A DNA stretch of 64,000 bases from an uncultured virus (IMG/VR IMGVR_UViG_3300002030_000016) (Duplodnaviria; Heunggongvirae; Uroviricota; Caudoviricetes): the IMG/VR virus record IMGVR_UViG_3300002030_000016, one strand, 5' to 3'. The notes under the pieces are model-generated. The model was not told the DNA's origin. It worked only from the letters and a program-made list of their open reading frames with translations, and did not search any database. Numbering within the stretch: the first letter of the stretch is position 1; each line of letters opens with the position of its first letter. The translations under genes were made by a program, and so were the position numbers. Shown in pieces: positions 5,709-45,022 of this stretch.

Positions 5709-6118
5709 CAGTAATCGGGGATTTCTTGGGTTTCCCCGGTAAACCACCAACGCCAGTCACTACGAATTTCAGCGACCCGGCCATCAATGACCAGTTCCGG
5801 CGGGAACATCACGCCATTGGGGCCATAGGAAAGATTGGCGTCTTTGGTACGGCCATGAATGCGAAGAAGAGACACATCCCAGTCCAGACGCTGGATGAAG
5901 AATTCAGCCCCTCCCAGCGTGACTGGGGTGGTCAATTTGGGCGGAAATCCCAGCTTTTCGAGTGAGACGGAACACTCGAATTCGAACCAACGATTGATCA
6001 AAACCTTTCTGGTCAGTTCAGCCTTTGGCGGCACTGCAGCAGCCGCGACATCGACACGCAGCAGGGCGGGGACAGCAGGTGCCACCCCAATCATCTTCAG
6101 TACGTCACGACGCTTCAT
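5708..6118 (-). CDS. hypothetical protein with twin-arginine (Tat)-like signal peptide
   Basis: MKRRDVLKMIGVAPAVPALL...AAAA; strong RBS AAGGAATGCCCA. Confidence 0.6.
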   Translation of the reverse strand: MKRRDVLKMIGVAPAVPALLRVDVAAAAVPPKAELTRKVLINRWFEFECSVSLEKLGFPPKLTTPVTLGGAEFFIQRLDWDVSLLRIHGRTKDANLSYGPNGVMFPPELVIDGRVAEIRSDWRWWFTGETQEIPDY

Positions 6119-6287
6119 TGGGCATTCCTTCTTCTGAGGGTTCTATCCCTACTTCATCTGGCCACAAGAACAAGTGGCATGTTGGGCATTGGACCTGATC
6201 TTCACCTGCTGCCATCAGCCGTTCAGCCTTCGCGTAGGAAGCGAAGAACGACAGTCTGGGCGCGTGGTGGGCGCATCTATCGACCAT
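6105..6287 (-). CDS. small Cys/His (zinc-ribbon-like) protein
   Basis: MVDRCAHH...QVQCPTCHLF. Confidence 0.5.
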   Translation of the reverse strand: MVDRCAHHAPRLSFFASYAKAERLMAAGEDQVQCPTCHLFLWPDEVGIEPSEEGMPNEAS

Positions 6288-8764: not shown

Positions 8765-8840
8765 TGGAGAACGGGGCGGGGTTCGAACCCGCGTCAATCT
8801 GGGTTTGCAATCCAGCGCATAGCCACTCTGCCACCCGTTC
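8765..8840 (-). tRNA. tRNA-Cys (GCA)
   Basis: Acceptor stem GAACGGG/CCCGTTC, discriminator U, encoded CCA; D-loop TGGCAGAGTGG; anticodon loop TTGCAAA; T-arm GCGGGTTCGAACCCCGC; A31-C39 mismatch. Confidence 0.92.
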
Positions 8841-31186: not shown

Positions 31187-31201
31187 AAAATATCAAATAA
31201 A

Positions 31202-31257
31202 GGGTTTGATCCCTGAATTAAGATGTGATTAAGCTGCCCCGTCCACTGAGAAGGACG
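31202..31257 (+). promoter_or_regulatory. promoter of the ter module: operator GGGTTTGATCCC over -35 TTGATC, -10 TAAGCT, then a 5' hairpin CGTCC-N8-GGACG
   Basis: AT-rich intergenic region; operator consensus match. Confidence 0.55.
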
Positions 31258-31280
31258 AAACCCTTAAATGGAGATACCCT

Positions 31281-31841
31281 ATGTTTCAACTCACGAAAGA
31301 CCAGCCGTTTGATCTGAAGAAATCGGACGGGTCAGCCGCGAACAACGTACTTGTTGGTGCGGGCTGGGATGCTTCCACTGAAGGTCAGACTGTAGACCTT
31401 GACCTTGCCGCAACCGTGTTCAACGGCACTTCAGTTGTGGACATGCTTTTCTTCGGAACGACCAACACCAACGCTGATGGCAAGAAGTCCATCGCGGGCA
31501 TGTTCCACAGCGGCGATGACCTGACCGGCGAAGGTTCGGACGATGGCCCGGACGAAGAAATCAACATCGATCTGTCTGGGGTCAATGGCGACCGCGTTGA
31601 ACTGGTCTTGAACCTCTACAACGCAGGCGACCGCAACCTTGGCATCGCCAAGAACGCATTCGTCCAAGTCAGCGGTGATGTCGAAGATGCGCGCATGACG
31701 ATCACCGAAGACATGACTGGCCATTCCATGCACATCGGCACGCTGAAAAAAGGCGATACCGGCTGGGTCTTCACGCCGCACGGCACGATGCTGGGCGATG
31801 TGGACCTGAATGGAGCGAATACCGCCCTGTCAGGCGCGTAA
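31281..31841 (+). CDS. terD: TerD-family stress protein
   Basis: VGAGWD, VDLDL, HSGDDLTGEG..DGPDEEINIDLS, NAFVQ, GWVF. Confidence 0.88.
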   Translation: MFQLTKDQPFDLKKSDGSAANNVLVGAGWDASTEGQTVDLDLAATVFNGTSVVDMLFFGTTNTNADGKKSIAGMFHSGDDLTGEGSDDGPDEEINIDLSGVNGDRVELVLNLYNAGDRNLGIAKNAFVQVSGDVEDARMTITEDMTGHSMHIGTLKKGDTGWVFTPHGTMLGDVDLNGANTALSGA

Positions 31842-31870
31842 ACCCTTCCTTCTGGCCTTTCAAACAAGGG

Positions 31871-31895
31871 GGGCAGGCATTTCAAACCCTGCCCC
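31871..31895 (+). other. GC-rich intergenic hairpin (GGGCAGG...CCTGCCC) after terD
   Basis: Inverted repeat with no U-tract; may stabilise or attenuate the mRNA. Confidence 0.4.
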
Positions 31896-31904
31896 ATTCA
31901 CATC

Positions 31905-32432
31905 ATGATTAGCATTGCTTTCACTATTTTTTCAGTGCTGGTGGCTGCACTGTTCATCTATCTGCTGGTGCCCGTGTTCAAGAAGAACAAGGCGACCGGC
32001 ATCATTTGGCTGGTGGTGCTATCCGCCGTCTGGATGGTATTTGAAATCGCACGCCCCCACGTCACTTACGAGACGATCACCGGAACAGAAGTCCGGCGGA
32101 TTGATGAAGATGGCCTTGGCCCGCTTCCGTCAGTCGATGTCCAATTCATCTACACTGCAGATCAGGCATTCCAGAACATGGATAGCTGGTGGTGGCTGAA
32201 GAAGAATTCAGACAACCTCTACCGTGACGCGAAAACGATTGAAGGGACAGATCAGTCCATGTGGATCGTTTACAACGGGGCACGCTCCACCCCGCTTTCT
32301 TGGTGGGGTAACATCATCGGGATGGGCACGTCCTTTCCGATGTTCACAGCGGTCAGAATATTCGTTTTCTACCTGATCGCACTCTTCGTGATTGGCGGCA
32401 TCGGCACACTGGTTCGACGGACCACGCGCTGA
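31905..32432 (+). CDS. DUF1523-like membrane protein
   Basis: ITGTEVRRID..DVQFIY..FQNMDSWW.LKKNSDNL..G.R..LSWWGNII flanked by TM helices. Confidence 0.7.
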   Translation: MISIAFTIFSVLVAALFIYLLVPVFKKNKATGIIWLVVLSAVWMVFEIARPHVTYETITGTEVRRIDEDGLGPLPSVDVQFIYTADQAFQNMDSWWWLKKNSDNLYRDAKTIEGTDQSMWIVYNGARSTPLSWWGNIIGMGTSFPMFTAVRIFVFYLIALFVIGGIGTLVRRTTR

Positions 32433-32474
32433 CACCCCGATCTTCCAACGACACCACCTATGGAGACATGACCA

Positions 32475-32912
32475 ATGGGCTTTTTCTCGGATAAACTTGG
32501 CGCTTTTGGCGCTTGGCTGGACAAGGCGAAAGAACAACTGGGCGGGAACCTCGCAAAATTCCAAAGCAAAGCGCAGCTTGAACGCCTTGCCGCCTGTGCC
32601 TTCTTGATTGCCAATTCTGATGGCGAAATCGATGCTGACGAAACAGACAAGTTCGTGGACATCGTGAAGCGCAACGCGCCCCAGTTCAGTGACGACGATT
32701 CCCGCGCGGCCTTTACCAAGGCAAGGGAGAACGGGGACACCAACAGCTTGCTGACTGAGATTGGGAAAGCCCCGGCTGAAGAAGGCGATACGCTGGTCAT
32801 GGCTGCCATTGCGATTGGCAGTGCTGACGGGGACTTCGATGACAAAGAAAAAGCGATGACGAAACGTATCTGTAGCGCGCTATTCATCCAGCCATCGAAG
32901 TTCGATCTGTAA
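32475..32912 (+). CDS. terB: TerB-family protein
   Basis: ACAFLIANSDGEIDADE ... AIAIGSADGDFDDKEK...ICSAL. Confidence 0.85.
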   Translation: MGFFSDKLGAFGAWLDKAKEQLGGNLAKFQSKAQLERLAACAFLIANSDGEIDADETDKFVDIVKRNAPQFSDDDSRAAFTKARENGDTNSLLTEIGKAPAEEGDTLVMAAIAIGSADGDFDDKEKAMTKRICSALFIQPSKFDL

Positions 32913-37436: not shown

Positions 37437-38645
37437 ATGACCACCAATATCAGTTGGACCGATGAAACTTGGAATCCTGTTGTGGGCTGCACGATTGTCA
37501 GCCCCGGCTGCACCAACTGCTATGCGATGAACATGGCAAGACGCTTGGAAGCAATGGGCGTAGATCACTACAAAGGGCTGACCCGGATGTCTGGTGGTCG
37601 CGCCATCTGGACGGGGAAAGTTACAACCGCACCAGATCACGTCTGGGATAAGCCCTTCAAATGGCGGGAACCACGGATGATCTTCGTGAATTCTATGAGC
37701 GACCTTTTCCACAAGTCTTTTTCAAATGAAGACATCGACCGGGCCTTGGGTGTCATGGCGGTGGCAGGGCAAAAATTTCAAGGCGCTGGGGATGGGTACA
37801 CCGTAAGCGGTTCTTGGACATCTTCGAAAGGGCACGAAGTCCCGATAAGGTGGCCAAACCAAAAGTCGGGACCGCATGTCTTCCAGATACTGACCAAGCG
37901 CGCTGACCGGATGCGGGAACACATGACCACCCGCCGCGCCCAGATCGCCGCTGCTGCTTACAGAGCAGCCCATAACAGGATTTGCGCTGGTGGCCTTGCT
38001 GACGCCATAGAAAACGGAAGCAACTGGCCATTGCCGAATGTTTGGCTGGGCATCAGCGCAGAAGACCAAGCTACCGCCAACGAACGCATTCCTGATCTTT
38101 TGGCCACCCCGGCGGAAGTTCGGTGGATTAGCGCCGAACCACTACTGGATCGTATCGATCTGGCATCTATCAGAACCATGAAATTTCGCGGGGCAGAAGG
38201 CGTGAATGCCTTCACTGGCGATTTGATGGATTTCATGGGCGAACCTGTAGGAAAGACCAACACTATCGATTGGATGGTGGTGGGTGGTGAGAGTGGACCC
38301 AAAGCACGCCCCATGAACCCAGACTGGGTGATCGAACTGGAAATCCAGTGTGAACAGTCGGGCATCCCTTTCCACCTGAAACAGTGGGGCGAATGGATTT
38401 CTTATGACAACTTCGGTGCGAACGGCTGGCAACACACCAGAATGAAGGGCGGCAAGAACCTTGGAAAGCTGGTCTTCGGTGGTTTTGGTCAAAGCACGCT
38501 GTCTGATCGTGAGTACGAAACCCGCTATCCGTGGGCTACCGAACACAGACCCGGACCCTGCATGGTTCGCGTAGGAAAAAAAGCGGCTGGGCGCAAATTG
38601 TTTGGGAAGGTCTATGACGCATACCCAGAAAGGGACGCCGCATGA
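37437..38645 (+). CDS. phage Gp37/Gp68 (DUF5131) family radical-SAM-like protein
   Basis: ISWTDETWNPVVGCTIVSPGCTNCYA, FVNSMSDLFH, FQILTKR, NVWLGIS, ISAEPLL, VVGGESG, FHLKQWG. Confidence 0.92.
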   Translation: MTTNISWTDETWNPVVGCTIVSPGCTNCYAMNMARRLEAMGVDHYKGLTRMSGGRAIWTGKVTTAPDHVWDKPFKWREPRMIFVNSMSDLFHKSFSNEDIDRALGVMAVAGQKFQGAGDGYTVSGSWTSSKGHEVPIRWPNQKSGPHVFQILTKRADRMREHMTTRRAQIAAAAYRAAHNRICAGGLADAIENGSNWPLPNVWLGISAEDQATANERIPDLLATPAEVRWISAEPLLDRIDLASIRTMKFRGAEGVNAFTGDLMDFMGEPVGKTNTIDWMVVGGESGPKARPMNPDWVIELEIQCEQSGIPFHLKQWGEWISYDNFGANGWQHTRMKGGKNLGKLVFGGFGQSTLSDREYETRYPWATEHRPGPCMVRVGKKAAGRKLFGKVYDAYPERDAA

Positions 38646-39520: not shown

Positions 39521-39817
39521 ATGAGACTGAGAGACGTTACACCCGGAACGATTATCAAGCTGGATGAAGGGTTCACCTGCCACGGTGGCGGAATGACCCG
39601 CGTTCGAAGAGACGATGGCGGACTGTATTTCAAATGCAAGGATGGCAAGCACTACCTTGAAGGCCAACTTCCCTTTGACCCAGCGGACGATGACGAACTT
39701 GTGGGCATCAGCAGGGCCACATTATTCGACCGTTTGCATGGCCCAACGGTCTGCATGATCTTGCTCGCTGCAGCATTTGCTTCCGCGTATTGGCGCTTTG
39801 GATTTTTTGAGGGTTGA
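39521..39817 (+). CDS. hypothetical protein with C-terminal TM helix
   Basis: RBS GAGGA; DEGFTC..LYFKCKDGKHYLEGQ. Confidence 0.6.
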   Translation: MRLRDVTPGTIIKLDEGFTCHGGGMTRVRRDDGGLYFKCKDGKHYLEGQLPFDPADDDELVGISRATLFDRLHGPTVCMILLAAAFASAYWRFGFFEG

Positions 39818-39857
39818 AACCCTTTTTCTATCGTGCCATTGGTGAGGGATGAAACCC
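39811..39857. promoter_or_regulatory. tandem operators GGGTTGAAACCC (39811) and GGGATGAAACCC (39846)
   Basis: Match to the genome-wide operator consensus; directly upstream of the 39849-41827 gene cluster. Confidence 0.6.
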
Positions 39858-40097
39858 TCAAACGAAGACTATCGCGAAGGAAGACGGGCCGGGTTCTTAG
39901 CAGCAGCGAATTCTTTGGATGTGCTGATAATGCAATGTGAAGATTACGCAACATCATCGCCCCGTCACCTTGCCCCAGCGTTCGATGCCTTGGCTTTAGC
40001 CTACACGAACGCGCAGCTTCACATCCGCGATGTGGCTGAAGGCCGGACACCAGAAAGGACACAGATCGATGATCCGCACATTGACCCTATTGAATGA
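39849..40097 (+). CDS. hypothetical protein
   Basis: 82 aa ORF whose start lies inside the second operator. Confidence 0.45.
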   Translation: MKPSNEDYREGRRAGFLAAANSLDVLIMQCEDYATSSPRHLAPAFDALALAYTNAQLHIRDVAEGRTPERTQIDDPHIDPIE

Positions 40098-40434
40098 ACG
40101 TGGCGACACCACGCTTGCTTGGGACGAAGACAGTGACGAACGCATGATCGCCCTGATCGATGCCAAGATCAAAGAAGGGATGACTTTCTTTCTGCTGAAG
40201 CCGAAAGCCAAGCCCACGGTGAAACAGAGGAAGCTGAAATCAGCCAAGGACGCCCTGCCAGACCGCGCCGTGGTGATGTCTGACCAAGACTTCGCTGAAA
40301 TGCTCACCAGCGGTGCAGCGACCGCGACAGACGCGCCTGAAGGCGAATTAGAGGTTGTGGACACGGCAACGACCGGGGCGGACGTGGTGAAGCACGGCAC
40401 CGCCGCTGCAGCGAAGCCGATGCGGGGCGGGTGA
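40069..40434 (+). CDS. small protein ending in Gly-Gly (candidate ubiquitin-like modifier)
   Basis: RBS GAAAGGA; MIRTLTLLNERGDTTLAWD...EGMTFFLL...AKPMRGG-stop. Confidence 0.65.
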   Translation: MIRTLTLLNERGDTTLAWDEDSDERMIALIDAKIKEGMTFFLLKPKAKPTVKQRKLKSAKDALPDRAVVMSDQDFAEMLTSGAATATDAPEGELEVVDTATTGADVVKHGTAAAAKPMRGG

Positions 40435-40607
40435 TGTCGCCTGTTGTCGCACTGCTGATTATCAGCATCGAAATGGCAGCCATCGGCTGGATGGTGGGTC
40501 GCATCGAAGTCCTTGGGAACCCCAAGGAAGTCTTCCGTGCCCAGCGGGCCTACTACTTCGCCATGATGATTGCGTTCTTTGGGGTGGGGAAAACATGGTT
40601 TTCCTAG
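40434..40607 (+). CDS. 57-aa two-TM membrane protein (not in the ORF track)
   Basis: TGATG-coupled; MSPVVALLIISIEMAAIGWMVGRIEVLGNPKEVFRAQRAYYFAMMIAFFGVGKTWFS. Confidence 0.55.
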   Translation: MSPVVALLIISIEMAAIGWMVGRIEVLGNPKEVFRAQRAYYFAMMIAFFGVGKTWFS

Positions 40608-41827
40608 TCGATAGATTGCCCCCTGAAATCCAATACGCGATGGACAACATCGTGGAACTTTGTGACGTGACAGCGGACGTTGCCACTTTCTTCAGGCACC
40701 ACGACGAAAAGGCGCGGGTCTTCTACGACTTCACGGCTGAAGAATGCGATTTCCACGGCATCCCATTTGATCACGCCCTGCCCCGGCTGCTTGACCAGAG
40801 ATACATGCAATGGAGGAAGACAGCACCGCTGCATGATCGCATCGACTGCCTGCTGTCTGGGGCCGGGTGCCTGACCATGCAGATCGATGAACTGGCGCAC
40901 GGCATTTCAGATCATGGCATCGACAAGCTGTTGCAGGGCGGGAAGCGGTCCCAGCGCCGCGCCAGATCGCCAGACGCGGTGATCCGAGCCGGGGCAACTG
41001 AACGCAGCCGGAATTTTGCTGTTGCCATAGAACGGCTTCGCGGCCTGATCGCTGATGATGTTGCAGAGGCAGCGGGCCAAGAAGACCACGTTCTGGATTT
41101 ACTGGCGACCGAACGACAACTGACGATGCAAGCTGAACGACAGCTTGCTGAAGAAGTCCGGCGCGTATTCGAACGACGTGTGAAGCGCCCACCCCGTTCA
41201 GTACGGAAGCAGAAGGCCAAGGCCATGTTGCGGGCCTTCAACTTCGCGTCGTCGCTGATTGGCCGCGAGACAGTCAGCGCGTTTGTTCAAGGCGACAGGA
41301 TCACCATTGCTGGACGGAACATGGATTTCATCATCAAGCCGAAAGGTCTTTGTGACGGATACGGTGGATGGTTCATCGAAGTCGCGGACAAGACCGGCGT
41401 GGTGATGTGCGAACTGTGCGTCTATCAGGAAGACGTGAACACGCTAGATCAGGTCGCAGCACTCGCCATGCACGTCATGGCCGGTGATGAAGAAAAGGTC
41501 TTTGCCATCGGGAACCTGCACCAGACCCACACCCCAAACCATCCATTGATCATCCAGCGGTCTGAACTTCGTGATGAAATCAAACCACCGCAACAGCATG
41601 TGCCTTGGGACATGAATGATGTTCGTCTTCAGATCGATGGCCCCGCCGGGTGGAACCCATCAGATCGAACGATGATGCGCCGCGAAGTCCGACATCGCAT
41701 CCAGCGCCGGTATCGATCCATCAGCTATTCGATGGATGATTTTGTCCCTGATGACATCGTGGAAGCCCGGAACCGGGTTCGTGCAGGACGTGAACAAAGA
41801 GAAAGGGTCATCGCCCATGCTTCGTGA
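40595..41827 (+). CDS. hypothetical protein; C-terminal domain with LC...D...DE..F...N pattern
   Basis: 410 aa ORF; ELCVYQEDVNTLDQVAALAMHVMAGDEEKVFAIGN. Confidence 0.65.
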   Translation: MVFLVDRLPPEIQYAMDNIVELCDVTADVATFFRHHDEKARVFYDFTAEECDFHGIPFDHALPRLLDQRYMQWRKTAPLHDRIDCLLSGAGCLTMQIDELAHGISDHGIDKLLQGGKRSQRRARSPDAVIRAGATERSRNFAVAIERLRGLIADDVAEAAGQEDHVLDLLATERQLTMQAERQLAEEVRRVFERRVKRPPRSVRKQKAKAMLRAFNFASSLIGRETVSAFVQGDRITIAGRNMDFIIKPKGLCDGYGGWFIEVADKTGVVMCELCVYQEDVNTLDQVAALAMHVMAGDEEKVFAIGNLHQTHTPNHPLIIQRSELRDEIKPPQQHVPWDMNDVRLQIDGPAGWNPSDRTMMRREVRHRIQRRYRSISYSMDDFVPDDIVEARNRVRAGREQRERVIAHAS

Positions 41828-42122
41828 ATTGAAACAGTGGATTGGAAGACTGATGCCAAGAGCCGCGCCCAGCAACCCAGTCACCAACCTTCCCCCAGAT
41901 CACGGTTTCGAAGAAGATGAACCATGTGGACGCGGGGACGCCTGCCCCGGCATCCTTGAACTTAGCCAAGAACCGGGCACGAACTGCACATGCCATCTTG
42001 GACATGCGCCGTGCAGTTCCTGTGAAACAGACTGGACGTGGTGCCCTGAGTGCGGGTGGGAAGCACGCGACGAACCGCCCTACCAATGGAAATCCGTGGG
42101 TGATCCACGCCCCCGGCACTAA
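41817..42122 (+). CDS. Cys-rich hypothetical protein
   Basis: CGRGDACPG..NCTCH..APCSSC..CPECGW. Confidence 0.6.
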   Translation: MLRELKQWIGRLMPRAAPSNPVTNLPPDHGFEEDEPCGRGDACPGILELSQEPGTNCTCHLGHAPCSSCETDWTWCPECGWEARDEPPYQWKSVGDPRPRH

Positions 42123-44919: not shown

Positions 44920-45022
44920 GAAAGTCTAGGGAGGATACCCTATTGATTGAGACGGGTTTCATACAGGCAAGAAACCTATCGAGCAGTAAGGGTTCCTACC
45001 CTGAGTTTGAAACGGATGTCAA

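Follow-up and report, generated by a model that had tools for sequence, protein, structure and literature searches.

We analyzed a 64,000-nucleotide stretch of DNA from an uncultured virus (IMG/VR record IMGVR_UViG_3300002030_000016; hereafter the window) and focused on two of its genes, which encode a 121-amino-acid protein that ends in Gly-Gly (the GG protein) and a 410-amino-acid protein (the partner). The gene content of the window identifies it as a piece of a tailed-phage genome. The minus strand encodes terminase, portal, tape measure, central tail fiber, and endolysin; replication and recombination genes, together with small unknown genes, make up a plus-strand block at ~25.7–44.2 kb. 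The GG protein and its partner form a cassette among the early/accessory genes of this phage. Within the plus-strand block, the locus comprises four coupled open reading frames (ORFs):

39849–40097, plus strand: lineage-specific 82-amino-acid ORF, with a 29-nucleotide overlap with the start of the GG protein
40069–40434, plus strand: 121-amino-acid GG protein, predicted to be beta-grasp-like; MIRTLTLLNERGDTTLAWDE...AAKPMRGG-stop
40434–40607, plus strand: 57-amino-acid hydrophobic ORF, joined to the GG-protein stop through a TGATG overlap and coupled on both sides
40595–41827, plus strand: 410-amino-acid partner, with a 13-nucleotide overlap with the 57-amino-acid ORF

The partner gene is usually coupled to the GG gene, through stop/start overlaps such as TGATG, TAATG, and similar arrangements. 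A longer alternative ORF for the GG protein opens at an ATG at position 40030; we place the start at MIRTL (40069) because a 98%-identical homolog, P0001, starts with the same residues. A first-pass annotation, made from the nucleotide sequence, had proposed that the locus encodes a ubiquitin-like (Ubl) conjugation module. Its description of the two major products, a 121-amino-acid protein ending in PMRGG-stop and a 410-amino-acid protein containing ELCVY...LDQVAALAMH...DEEKVFAIGN, was borne out at 40069–40434 and 40595–41827, respectively. Translation of the GG protein ends exactly at Gly-Gly; its tail would therefore bear a free C-terminal carboxylate, as in mature ubiquitin. The region was found as DNA in five sequencing runs from two studies, which are labeled as algae and marine metagenomes; no RNA run was listed.

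A glycine-terminated family and its linked partner

A profile search of 1.84 billion representatives revealed 399 relatives of the GG protein at E ≤ 1e-3, counted as clusters at 50% identity, and 232 at E ≤ 1e-10; a word-indexed search yielded only five. Nearly all members of the family are 115–145 amino acids in length, and the matches extend to the last residue. We tallied terminal residues in the best 150 of the 399 representatives. The C-terminal residue is Gly in 144 of these 150 (132 GG, 9 AG, and 3 SG). The six that end otherwise include a 568-amino-acid protein (P0048) in which a frameshift fuses the GG protein to a homolog of the 410-amino-acid protein, an extension after an internal ...KGG in P0113, and truncated or altered ends. 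GG ends are present in 21 of the 23 fetched loci (one of the remaining two ends in SG and the other contains a decayed copy) and in all 21 complete ORFs among 25 metagenome loci. In an alignment of 144 sequences, three residues never vary (G37, F40, and the terminal G121), and five others show conservation of at least 90% (G12, D13, W18, D72, and G120). The residue at position −3 is most often Arg (53/132) and Pro occupies position −5 in 89/144; the flexible tail has the pattern [RK]-P-x-[RK]-G-G. The first-pass annotation had asked whether the diglycine is conserved in homologs. As judged from the profile search, the terminal GG is a hallmark of the family, retained far beyond chance.

No family in Pfam, PHROGs, NCBIfam, or PADLOC covers the GG protein, and the named members of its family are all annotated as "hypothetical protein". 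A weak match of the GG protein to phrog_10854 (E = 0.027) is absent from the 144 members. Searches of the ESM Atlas returned no usable match for either protein, and sequence profiles of the Protein Data Bank (PDB) returned none for the GG protein. Some members (P0022, P0036, P0090, and P0113) carry N-terminal extensions of 80–135 amino acids, some of which are Cys-rich, and still end in GG; P0113 runs 21 residues past its internal ...KGG.

Linkage of the two genes was examined in the window and 22 fetched loci and scored wherever sufficient downstream room exists. The 21 loci scored are the window, the phages Atu_ph07 and Phosso, and 18 viral or genome contigs. Two loci were not scorable: L022 ends 73 nucleotides past the GG gene, and L001 contains only remnants. 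In 21/21 of the scored loci, the GG gene has a homolog of the partner directly downstream. The partner likewise follows directly in 20/20 metagenome loci with room; among the 25 such loci, 4 are cut inside the small gene, 1 has 130 nucleotides left, and at least 5 duplicate viral loci. No gene besides the partner is common to all fetched loci. The association with "LC...D....DE..F...N" proteins, which the first-pass annotation had suggested, is real.

The GG proteins of two jumbo phages, Sinorhizobium phage Phosso and Agrobacterium phage Atu_ph07, are 31–34% identical to that of the window. A partner of 418 or 397 amino acids follows directly after the GG gene in these phages and shares the N-terminal P-P-D-I-Q-Y..D and the LCVY...D...H...G.E motifs. 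The core of the locus is a widespread, phage-borne, two-gene cassette. Its carriers are tailed phages of unrelated hosts (Alphaproteobacteria and Bacteroidota), with genomes that range from 60-kb siphovirus-like to 600-kb jumbo. INPHARED phages gave no match to the region by blastn or to the partner by tblastn. Word-indexed searches with the partner found only itself and then two Atu_ph07-like proteins, and the nearest virus record (G001), a 24%-complete fragment, lacks the partner.

Homologs of the partner are ~400–500 amino acids in length. In the partner of the window, an N-terminal PPEIQY..D motif and long helices are combined with a C-terminal alpha/beta domain at residues ~200–330. Conservation was assessed over 28 distinct sequences, with H293 counted over 18. 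G233, G257, C275, and N307 are invariant (28/28), and D285 (27/28) is nearly so; D17 is present in 27/28 and R213 in 25/28. Neither of two His positions is invariant: H256 is present in 26/28 and replaced by Tyr in the window, and H293 is present in 15/18. Pfam, PHROGs, PADLOC, and NCBIfam contain no family for the partner, and none of 18 partners matched UQ_con or Prok-E2 even at E ≤ 10.

Predicted structures of the two proteins and of their complex

The AlphaFold2 (AF2) model of the GG protein has a predicted local distance difference test (pLDDT) score of 70 and a predicted template modeling score of 0.65. It consists of strands at residues 3–7 and 14–18, a helix at 20–35, a strand at 39–45, a disordered basic insert at 49–70, a helix at 73–81, strands at 85–87 and 94–100, a helix at 103–109, a strand at 111–115, and a free tail. 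This order of strands and helices is that of a beta-grasp with a disordered loop inserted. In an exhaustive VIA comparison against the PDB, the best match reached a Z score of 3.8 with a root-mean-square deviation of 3.1 over 66 aligned residues. The 50 VIA matches listed are, in our judgment, mostly beta-grasp proteins, including PB1, RBD/RA, SUMO, ISG15, ubiquitin, TtuB, Mth1743, and an archaeal Ubl, and many of these alignments extend to the last residues of the model. The GG protein is therefore predicted to have a ubiquitin-like topology, with scores too weak to serve as proof; the beta-grasp-like fold surmised in the first-pass annotation agrees with the modeled topology at the same weak level (Z ≤ 3.8).

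The AF2 model of the partner has an overall pLDDT of 65. The N-terminal half is helical with low to moderate confidence, and residues 200–330 are modeled confidently (pLDDT 83–96). This C-terminal domain comprises two helices, a four-stranded meander that ends at Cys275, two further helices, a strand at N307, and a final helix. Searches of the model with Foldseek and VIA returned helical-hairpin matches with Z ≤ 6.4 and, for the Cys domain, nothing clear (Z ≤ 4.3). No E2 domain aligned to the Cys domain in the fold-search lists; the search of the whole PDB was dominated by the helical half. A search of the BFVD collection singled out only the Atu_ph07 homolog, and PDB sequence profiles gave chance-level helical matches (E ≥ 0.14).

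We next consider the predicted complex, for which residues 1–335 of the partner (18-row alignment) were combined with the GG protein (144-row alignment). The prediction scored 0.64; the best of three controls scored 0.00. Of 157 solved complexes, 116 attained the score mark applied here, as did 2 of 215 mismatched pairs; these counts apply only approximately, since the prediction was run on alignments of our own. At least 85% of contacts are common to the runs, and pLDDT of the partner chain is at least 74. The predicted interface is formed by residues 206–223, 275–282, 285, 288–298, 302, and 305–307 of the partner and by residues 6, 8–13, 39, 41, 88–99, 113, and 115–121 of the GG protein. In this model, the GG tail rests on the loop after Cys275: partner residues 275–282 touch residues 115–121 of the GG protein, such that the loop at the invariant Cys is predicted to be contacted by the Ubl tail. 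The interface also includes partner residues R213, D285, and N307 and, from the GG protein, G12/D13, so conserved residues of both proteins are predicted to meet around the tail. W18 and D72/D74 of the GG protein are conserved yet lie outside the interface, an arrangement that would fit a third binding partner. Docking of the tail at the conserved Cys had been named in the first-pass annotation as a check on its proposal, and the model reproduces it. The complex model supports binding of the GG protein to its partner, short of demonstration.

Variation and surroundings of the cassette

The junction of the two core genes is an insertion hot spot, occupied in different phages by small ORFs that are unrelated to one another. 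Only the window and L021 have a small membrane ORF at this position; other loci hold another insert or lack one. The L021 ORF (5363–5515) encodes a 50-amino-acid membrane protein whose sequence is unrelated to that of the window, and further inserts are present in L010 (5374–6125), L011 (5360–6059), and L012/L018 (5358–5512). The 57-amino-acid ORF of the window contains two hydrophobic segments, the first strong and the other weaker, and library scans assigned it to no family. The first-pass annotation had described a coupled protein with two transmembrane segments that belongs to the module. The coupling stands and the second segment is the weaker; membership in the module was rejected, as the ORF is not conserved with the pair and the inserts vary. 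We also rejected a readthrough or fusion precursor that is cleaved after GG, given that stop and start lie in different frames and that inserts separate the genes.

Judged from its sequence relatives, the 82-amino-acid ORF is specific to the phage lineage and falls outside the conserved pair. Its sole relative in the fetched loci is the N-terminal part of P0003, a decayed fusion encoded by L001. Among relatives of the window phage, L001 is the closest. At positions 5866–6837 of L001 the cassette has decayed: a fusion joins the 82-amino-acid ORF to a GG gene without its tail and first strands, no membrane ORF is left, and the partner is reduced to its first ~50 residues, which are fused to a C-terminus that looks SpoU-methylase-like by eye.

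The ORF that lies just after the partner (window 41736–42122; L001 7219–7833) encodes a Cys-rich CxCH...CxxC...CPxC motif, with a weak match to Sina_RING (E = 0.0038) and a match to phrog_22771 (6e-11). A RING-like zinc protein beside a Ubl pair is noteworthy. This ORF is probably independent of the pair because L001 retains it despite the decay of its GG cassette.

Two other types of gene recur upstream. A NUDIX hydrolase gene immediately precedes the GG gene in seven jumbo-like loci (L012 and L014–L019; for example, L017 4405–4908), and in Atu_ph07 a gene annotated as ADP-ribose pyrophosphatase is located 3.6 kb upstream of the GG gene. Genes for classical AAA (PF00004) ATPases lie 0.5–2.5 kb upstream of the GG gene in only three distinct loci: L004 (2930–4483), L005/L026 (L005 2941–3894), and L021 (576–2279 and 2443–3909). 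The AAA genes are reminiscent of pairings between Ubls and AAA unfoldases, and their linkage is not conserved. AAA ATPases and NUDIX hydrolases were rejected as core components, each being present in subsets of loci only.

A palindromic repeat precedes the four ORFs in the window:

39810–39823, no strand assigned: perfect palindrome AGGGTT-GA-AACCCT, first copy of AGGGWTGAAACCCT, with 0 mismatches and followed by a T-run
39845–39858, plus strand: second copy of the motif, AGGGATGAAACCCT, overlapping the ATG of the 82-amino-acid ORF

The first copy overlaps the stop codon of the upstream ORF (39521–39817) and scans as a terminator-like hairpin at 39809–39824. Allowing up to two mismatches, AGGGWTGAAACCCT occurs 9 times in the window, where 0.75 occurrences would be expected. 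Further paired copies are located at 31201/31251 and 44928/44989 (spans 31201–31264 and 44928–45002), and others at 6137 and 10591. Most copies are paired with a spacing of 35–61 bp and lie in intergenic DNA. By its sequence and distribution, AGGGWTGAAACCCT appears to be a phage-wide regulatory or terminator element. Of the operator pair postulated in the first-pass annotation, the repeated motif is genuine; it may act as an operator or as a terminator, the first copy being also a terminator-like hairpin.

Elsewhere in the window, Pfam identifies genes with TerD, DUF1523, and TerB domains in a row (31281–32909, phage early block), a tellurite-resistance-type stress module. A DUF5131 (phage Gp37/Gp68) gene lies at 37437–38645, 1.4 kb upstream of the cassette, and a tRNA-Cys gene is located near the packaging genes (8765–8840).

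Interpretation of the cassette

Our tentative interpretation is that the cassette encodes a non-canonical phage Ubl/Cys-partner pair whose activity depends on the free GG terminus; the partner would be the acceptor or ligase, using its Cys, and activation would come in trans. According to this model, the C-terminal alpha/beta domain of the partner would bind the GG protein such that the tail runs along the loop after Cys275, beside Asp285 and Asn307. The GG carboxylate would be adenylated by an enzyme that is not phage-encoded, candidates being an E1-like host enzyme of the MoeB/ThiF type or the E1 that belongs to a Ubl-based defense system of the host. The GG protein may then be held or transferred as a thioester on the partner cysteine. 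The partner, an E2-like acceptor or ligase of a non-canonical kind, would thereby tag proteins of the host or the phage early in infection; the 57-amino-acid membrane ORF and the 82-amino-acid upstream ORF would be lineage-specific additions. The first-pass annotation is supported in part, namely in the GG hallmark, the modeled fold topology, the linked Cys partner, the predicted docking of the tail, and the failure to find an E1 or JAB gene; its inclusion of the membrane protein is not supported, and the covalent tagging and decoy role that it proposed are hypothetical. It is tempting to speculate further that phages own a minimal Ubl transfer system in which a new class of Cys enzyme replaces E2, and perhaps E3, and a viral Ubl is charged by a hijacked host MoeB/ThiF-type or immune E1 or through a new E1-independent route, for the tagging of host or phage proteins. 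We regard this stronger version as doubtful.

Several observations weigh against Ubl transfer by the cassette. All evidence for its function is in silico. Pfam searches of the 96 ORFs in the window, in which the first-pass annotation had seen no E1/ThiF or JAB gene, indeed returned no match to ThiF/E1, JAB, or UBC. We also scanned five cassette-bearing jumbo-phage records (two deposited complete genomes, two that are 97–100% complete, and one that is 72% complete). Neither ThiF (PF00899) nor Prok-JAB (PF14464) was found in any of the five; in control scans the two were detected in 12/14 and 8/14 genomes, respectively. The N-terminal half of the partner, in a low-confidence all-helical model, shows no nucleotide-binding fold, and in the searches described above its Cys domain matched no known fold or family, E2 included. 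Alignment of the Cys domain with six Prok-E2_B (Cap2-like) sequences by hhalign gave a probability of 0.5%. The 28 partner sequences share no invariant His. The beta-grasp assignment of the GG protein depends on weak scores (best Z 3.8), and Foldseek found nothing in the PDB better than E = 1. Decay of the cassette in L001, the closest relative, indicates that it is dispensable. Finally, MoaD, a non-conjugating carrier, binds MoaE with its tail inserted beside the active site, and docking of the GG tail is therefore no proof of conjugation. Overall, no sequence or fold link was obtained to E1, E2, JAB, ThiS/MoaD, Bil, or CBASS proteins.

Comparison with established systems reveals both likenesses and differences. 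Eukaryotic ubiquitin-UBC pairs involve a small beta-grasp protein with a basic ...R-G-G free end, which the GG protein resembles in its tail and modeled topology, and the predicted position of the tail beside an invariant Cys, with Asn and Asp nearby, and the packing of the Ubl sheet on a partner helix are also similar. Unlike those systems, the cassette has no E1, E3, or deubiquitinase, and no UBC sequence or fold match was obtained for the partner. Its Cys lies at the end of a strand and its residues follow the order C..D..N, as opposed to N..C..D in UBC. The GG protein also has a ~20-residue disordered insert, unlike ubiquitin. Phages are reported to have another Ubl: analyses by Iyer, Burroughs, and Aravind reportedly describe lambda-like tail assembly protein I, which contains a Ubl domain, together with the JAB/NlpC protein gpK. 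Protein I resembles the GG protein, as modeled, in being a phage-encoded ubiquitin-like domain with a GG motif. The lambda-like pair belongs to the tail module and combines an internal GG with a JAB peptidase, whereas the cassette described here lies in an early/accessory region, has a terminal GG, and lacks JAB.

An alternative, which we consider unlikely, is that the pair serves non-covalently in counter-defense. The GG protein would mimic a host Ubl or tail of the Bil/Bub or type II CBASS Cap2 type and thereby titrate, trap, or block E1/E2; or the partner would be a Cys-dependent de-conjugating enzyme bound to a substrate mimic. The GG/AG/SG spectrum of ends resembles that of CD-NTase tails used by Cap2, and the cassette is phage-carried, sits among early/accessory genes at an insertion hot spot, is dispensable and decays, and occurs in phages in which scans of the window ORFs and the five jumbo-phage records found no E1. 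A pure decoy, however, would need no always-linked 400-amino-acid partner whose invariant residues are predicted to face the decoy tail. A deubiquitinase or Ubl protease of the Cys-His(-Asp) type is disfavored by the partner sequences, in which Cys is invariant and His is not, with no peptidase family match and hence no Cys-His protease signature. PADLOC returned no significant match for the GG protein, the partner, or their relatives, to Bil, CBASS, or other defense proteins. The defense systems in question are organized differently. Bil/Bub-type systems are described in outline as host-encoded four-gene operons that encode Ubl, E1, E2, and JAB (bioRxiv 10.1101/2023.09.04.556158). They share with the cassette, whose Ubl is predicted, a Ubl of the prokaryotic world with a C-terminal Gly and a setting of phage-host conflict; the cassette differs in its phage carrier, its two genes, the lack of a PADLOC match, and the failure to find ThiF or JAB. 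In type II CBASS, Cap2 is outlined as an E2-E1 fusion, and Cap2/Cap3 are linked to conjugation of the C-terminus of the CD-NTase (PMC10097602). A free C-terminal Gly (or Ala-Gly-like) tail used by a Cys-dependent transfer enzyme is common to CBASS and the proposed transfer system; here, the tail-bearing GG protein is no nucleotidyltransferase and, as noted, the hhalign probability for the partner and Prok-E2_B was only 0.5%.

It is similarly improbable, in our estimation, that the two proteins form an ordinary obligate heterodimer, such as a regulator or scaffold of early infection, in which Gly is kept to fit a narrow groove, the carboxylate undergoes no chemistry, and the Cys is structural or redox-sensing. 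The evidence for chemistry is all indirect, no catalytic fold was recognized in the partner, and long coiled-coil-like helices such as those of the partner are typical of scaffolds. Against simple packing stand the exact stop of the family after its last Gly (144/150) and the environment of the tail, in which an invariant Cys and Asn and a near-invariant Asp look more like an active site than a packing surface.

Still less probable is a role in sulfur transfer, with the two proteins forming a carrier/synthase pair like MoaD-MoaE, ThiS-ThiG, or CysO-CysM. The GG end would be turned into a thiocarboxylate by an E1-like enzyme of the host together with a sulfur donor, and the tail would deliver sulfur in the active site of the partner; Cys275 would act as a persulfide relay or in catalysis, and the product would be a thio-modified metabolite, nucleotide, or tRNA/DNA base. 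MoaD-MoaE, ThiS-ThiG, and TtuB resemble the predicted arrangement of the cassette in that a beta-grasp protein of ~70–120 amino acids inserts a terminal GG tail into a dedicated partner, the E1-like activator possibly being encoded elsewhere. The GG end, the beta-grasp-like model, and the lack of E2, E3, and JAB genes suit such carriers equally well, and the predicted tail-in-pocket complex resembles docking of MoaD into MoaE. Host ThiS/MoaD proteins are common (Pfam PF02597 is present in 16/26 sampled genomes from the class of one cassette-bearing genome), and a tRNA-modifying gene lies ~600 bp downstream in Atu_ph07. PF02597, however, matched 0/144 members of the GG family at E ≤ 0.01. Alignment of the family with 22 ThiS/MoaD sequences by hhalign reached a probability of only 10% and covered 18 terminal columns, corresponding to the last strand and the GG tail. 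The partner is unrelated in sequence to MoaE, ThiG, and TtuA, has no PP-loop, rhodanese, MoaE, or ThiG-like match, and no sulfur-metabolism gene is linked to the loci.

The listings and abstract openings covered by our literature search included no paper that describes a Ubl encoded by a phage, ending in GG, and paired with a protein of this kind. Two cultured phages, Atu_ph07 and Phosso, carry the pair; the proposal that it forms a non-canonical Ubl/Cys-partner system is therefore directly testable. That proposal raises the question of what activates the tail when no E1 is encoded. Bacterial Ubl conjugation has so far been described as a weapon of the host (Bil/Bub and CBASS Cap2) or as part of sulfur-carrier metabolism. 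If the proposal is correct, such chemistry would also exist on the viral side of the conflict, carried out by a phage Ubl and a dedicated, unclassified Cys partner, and the partner would represent a new class of enzyme that acts on a GG terminus.

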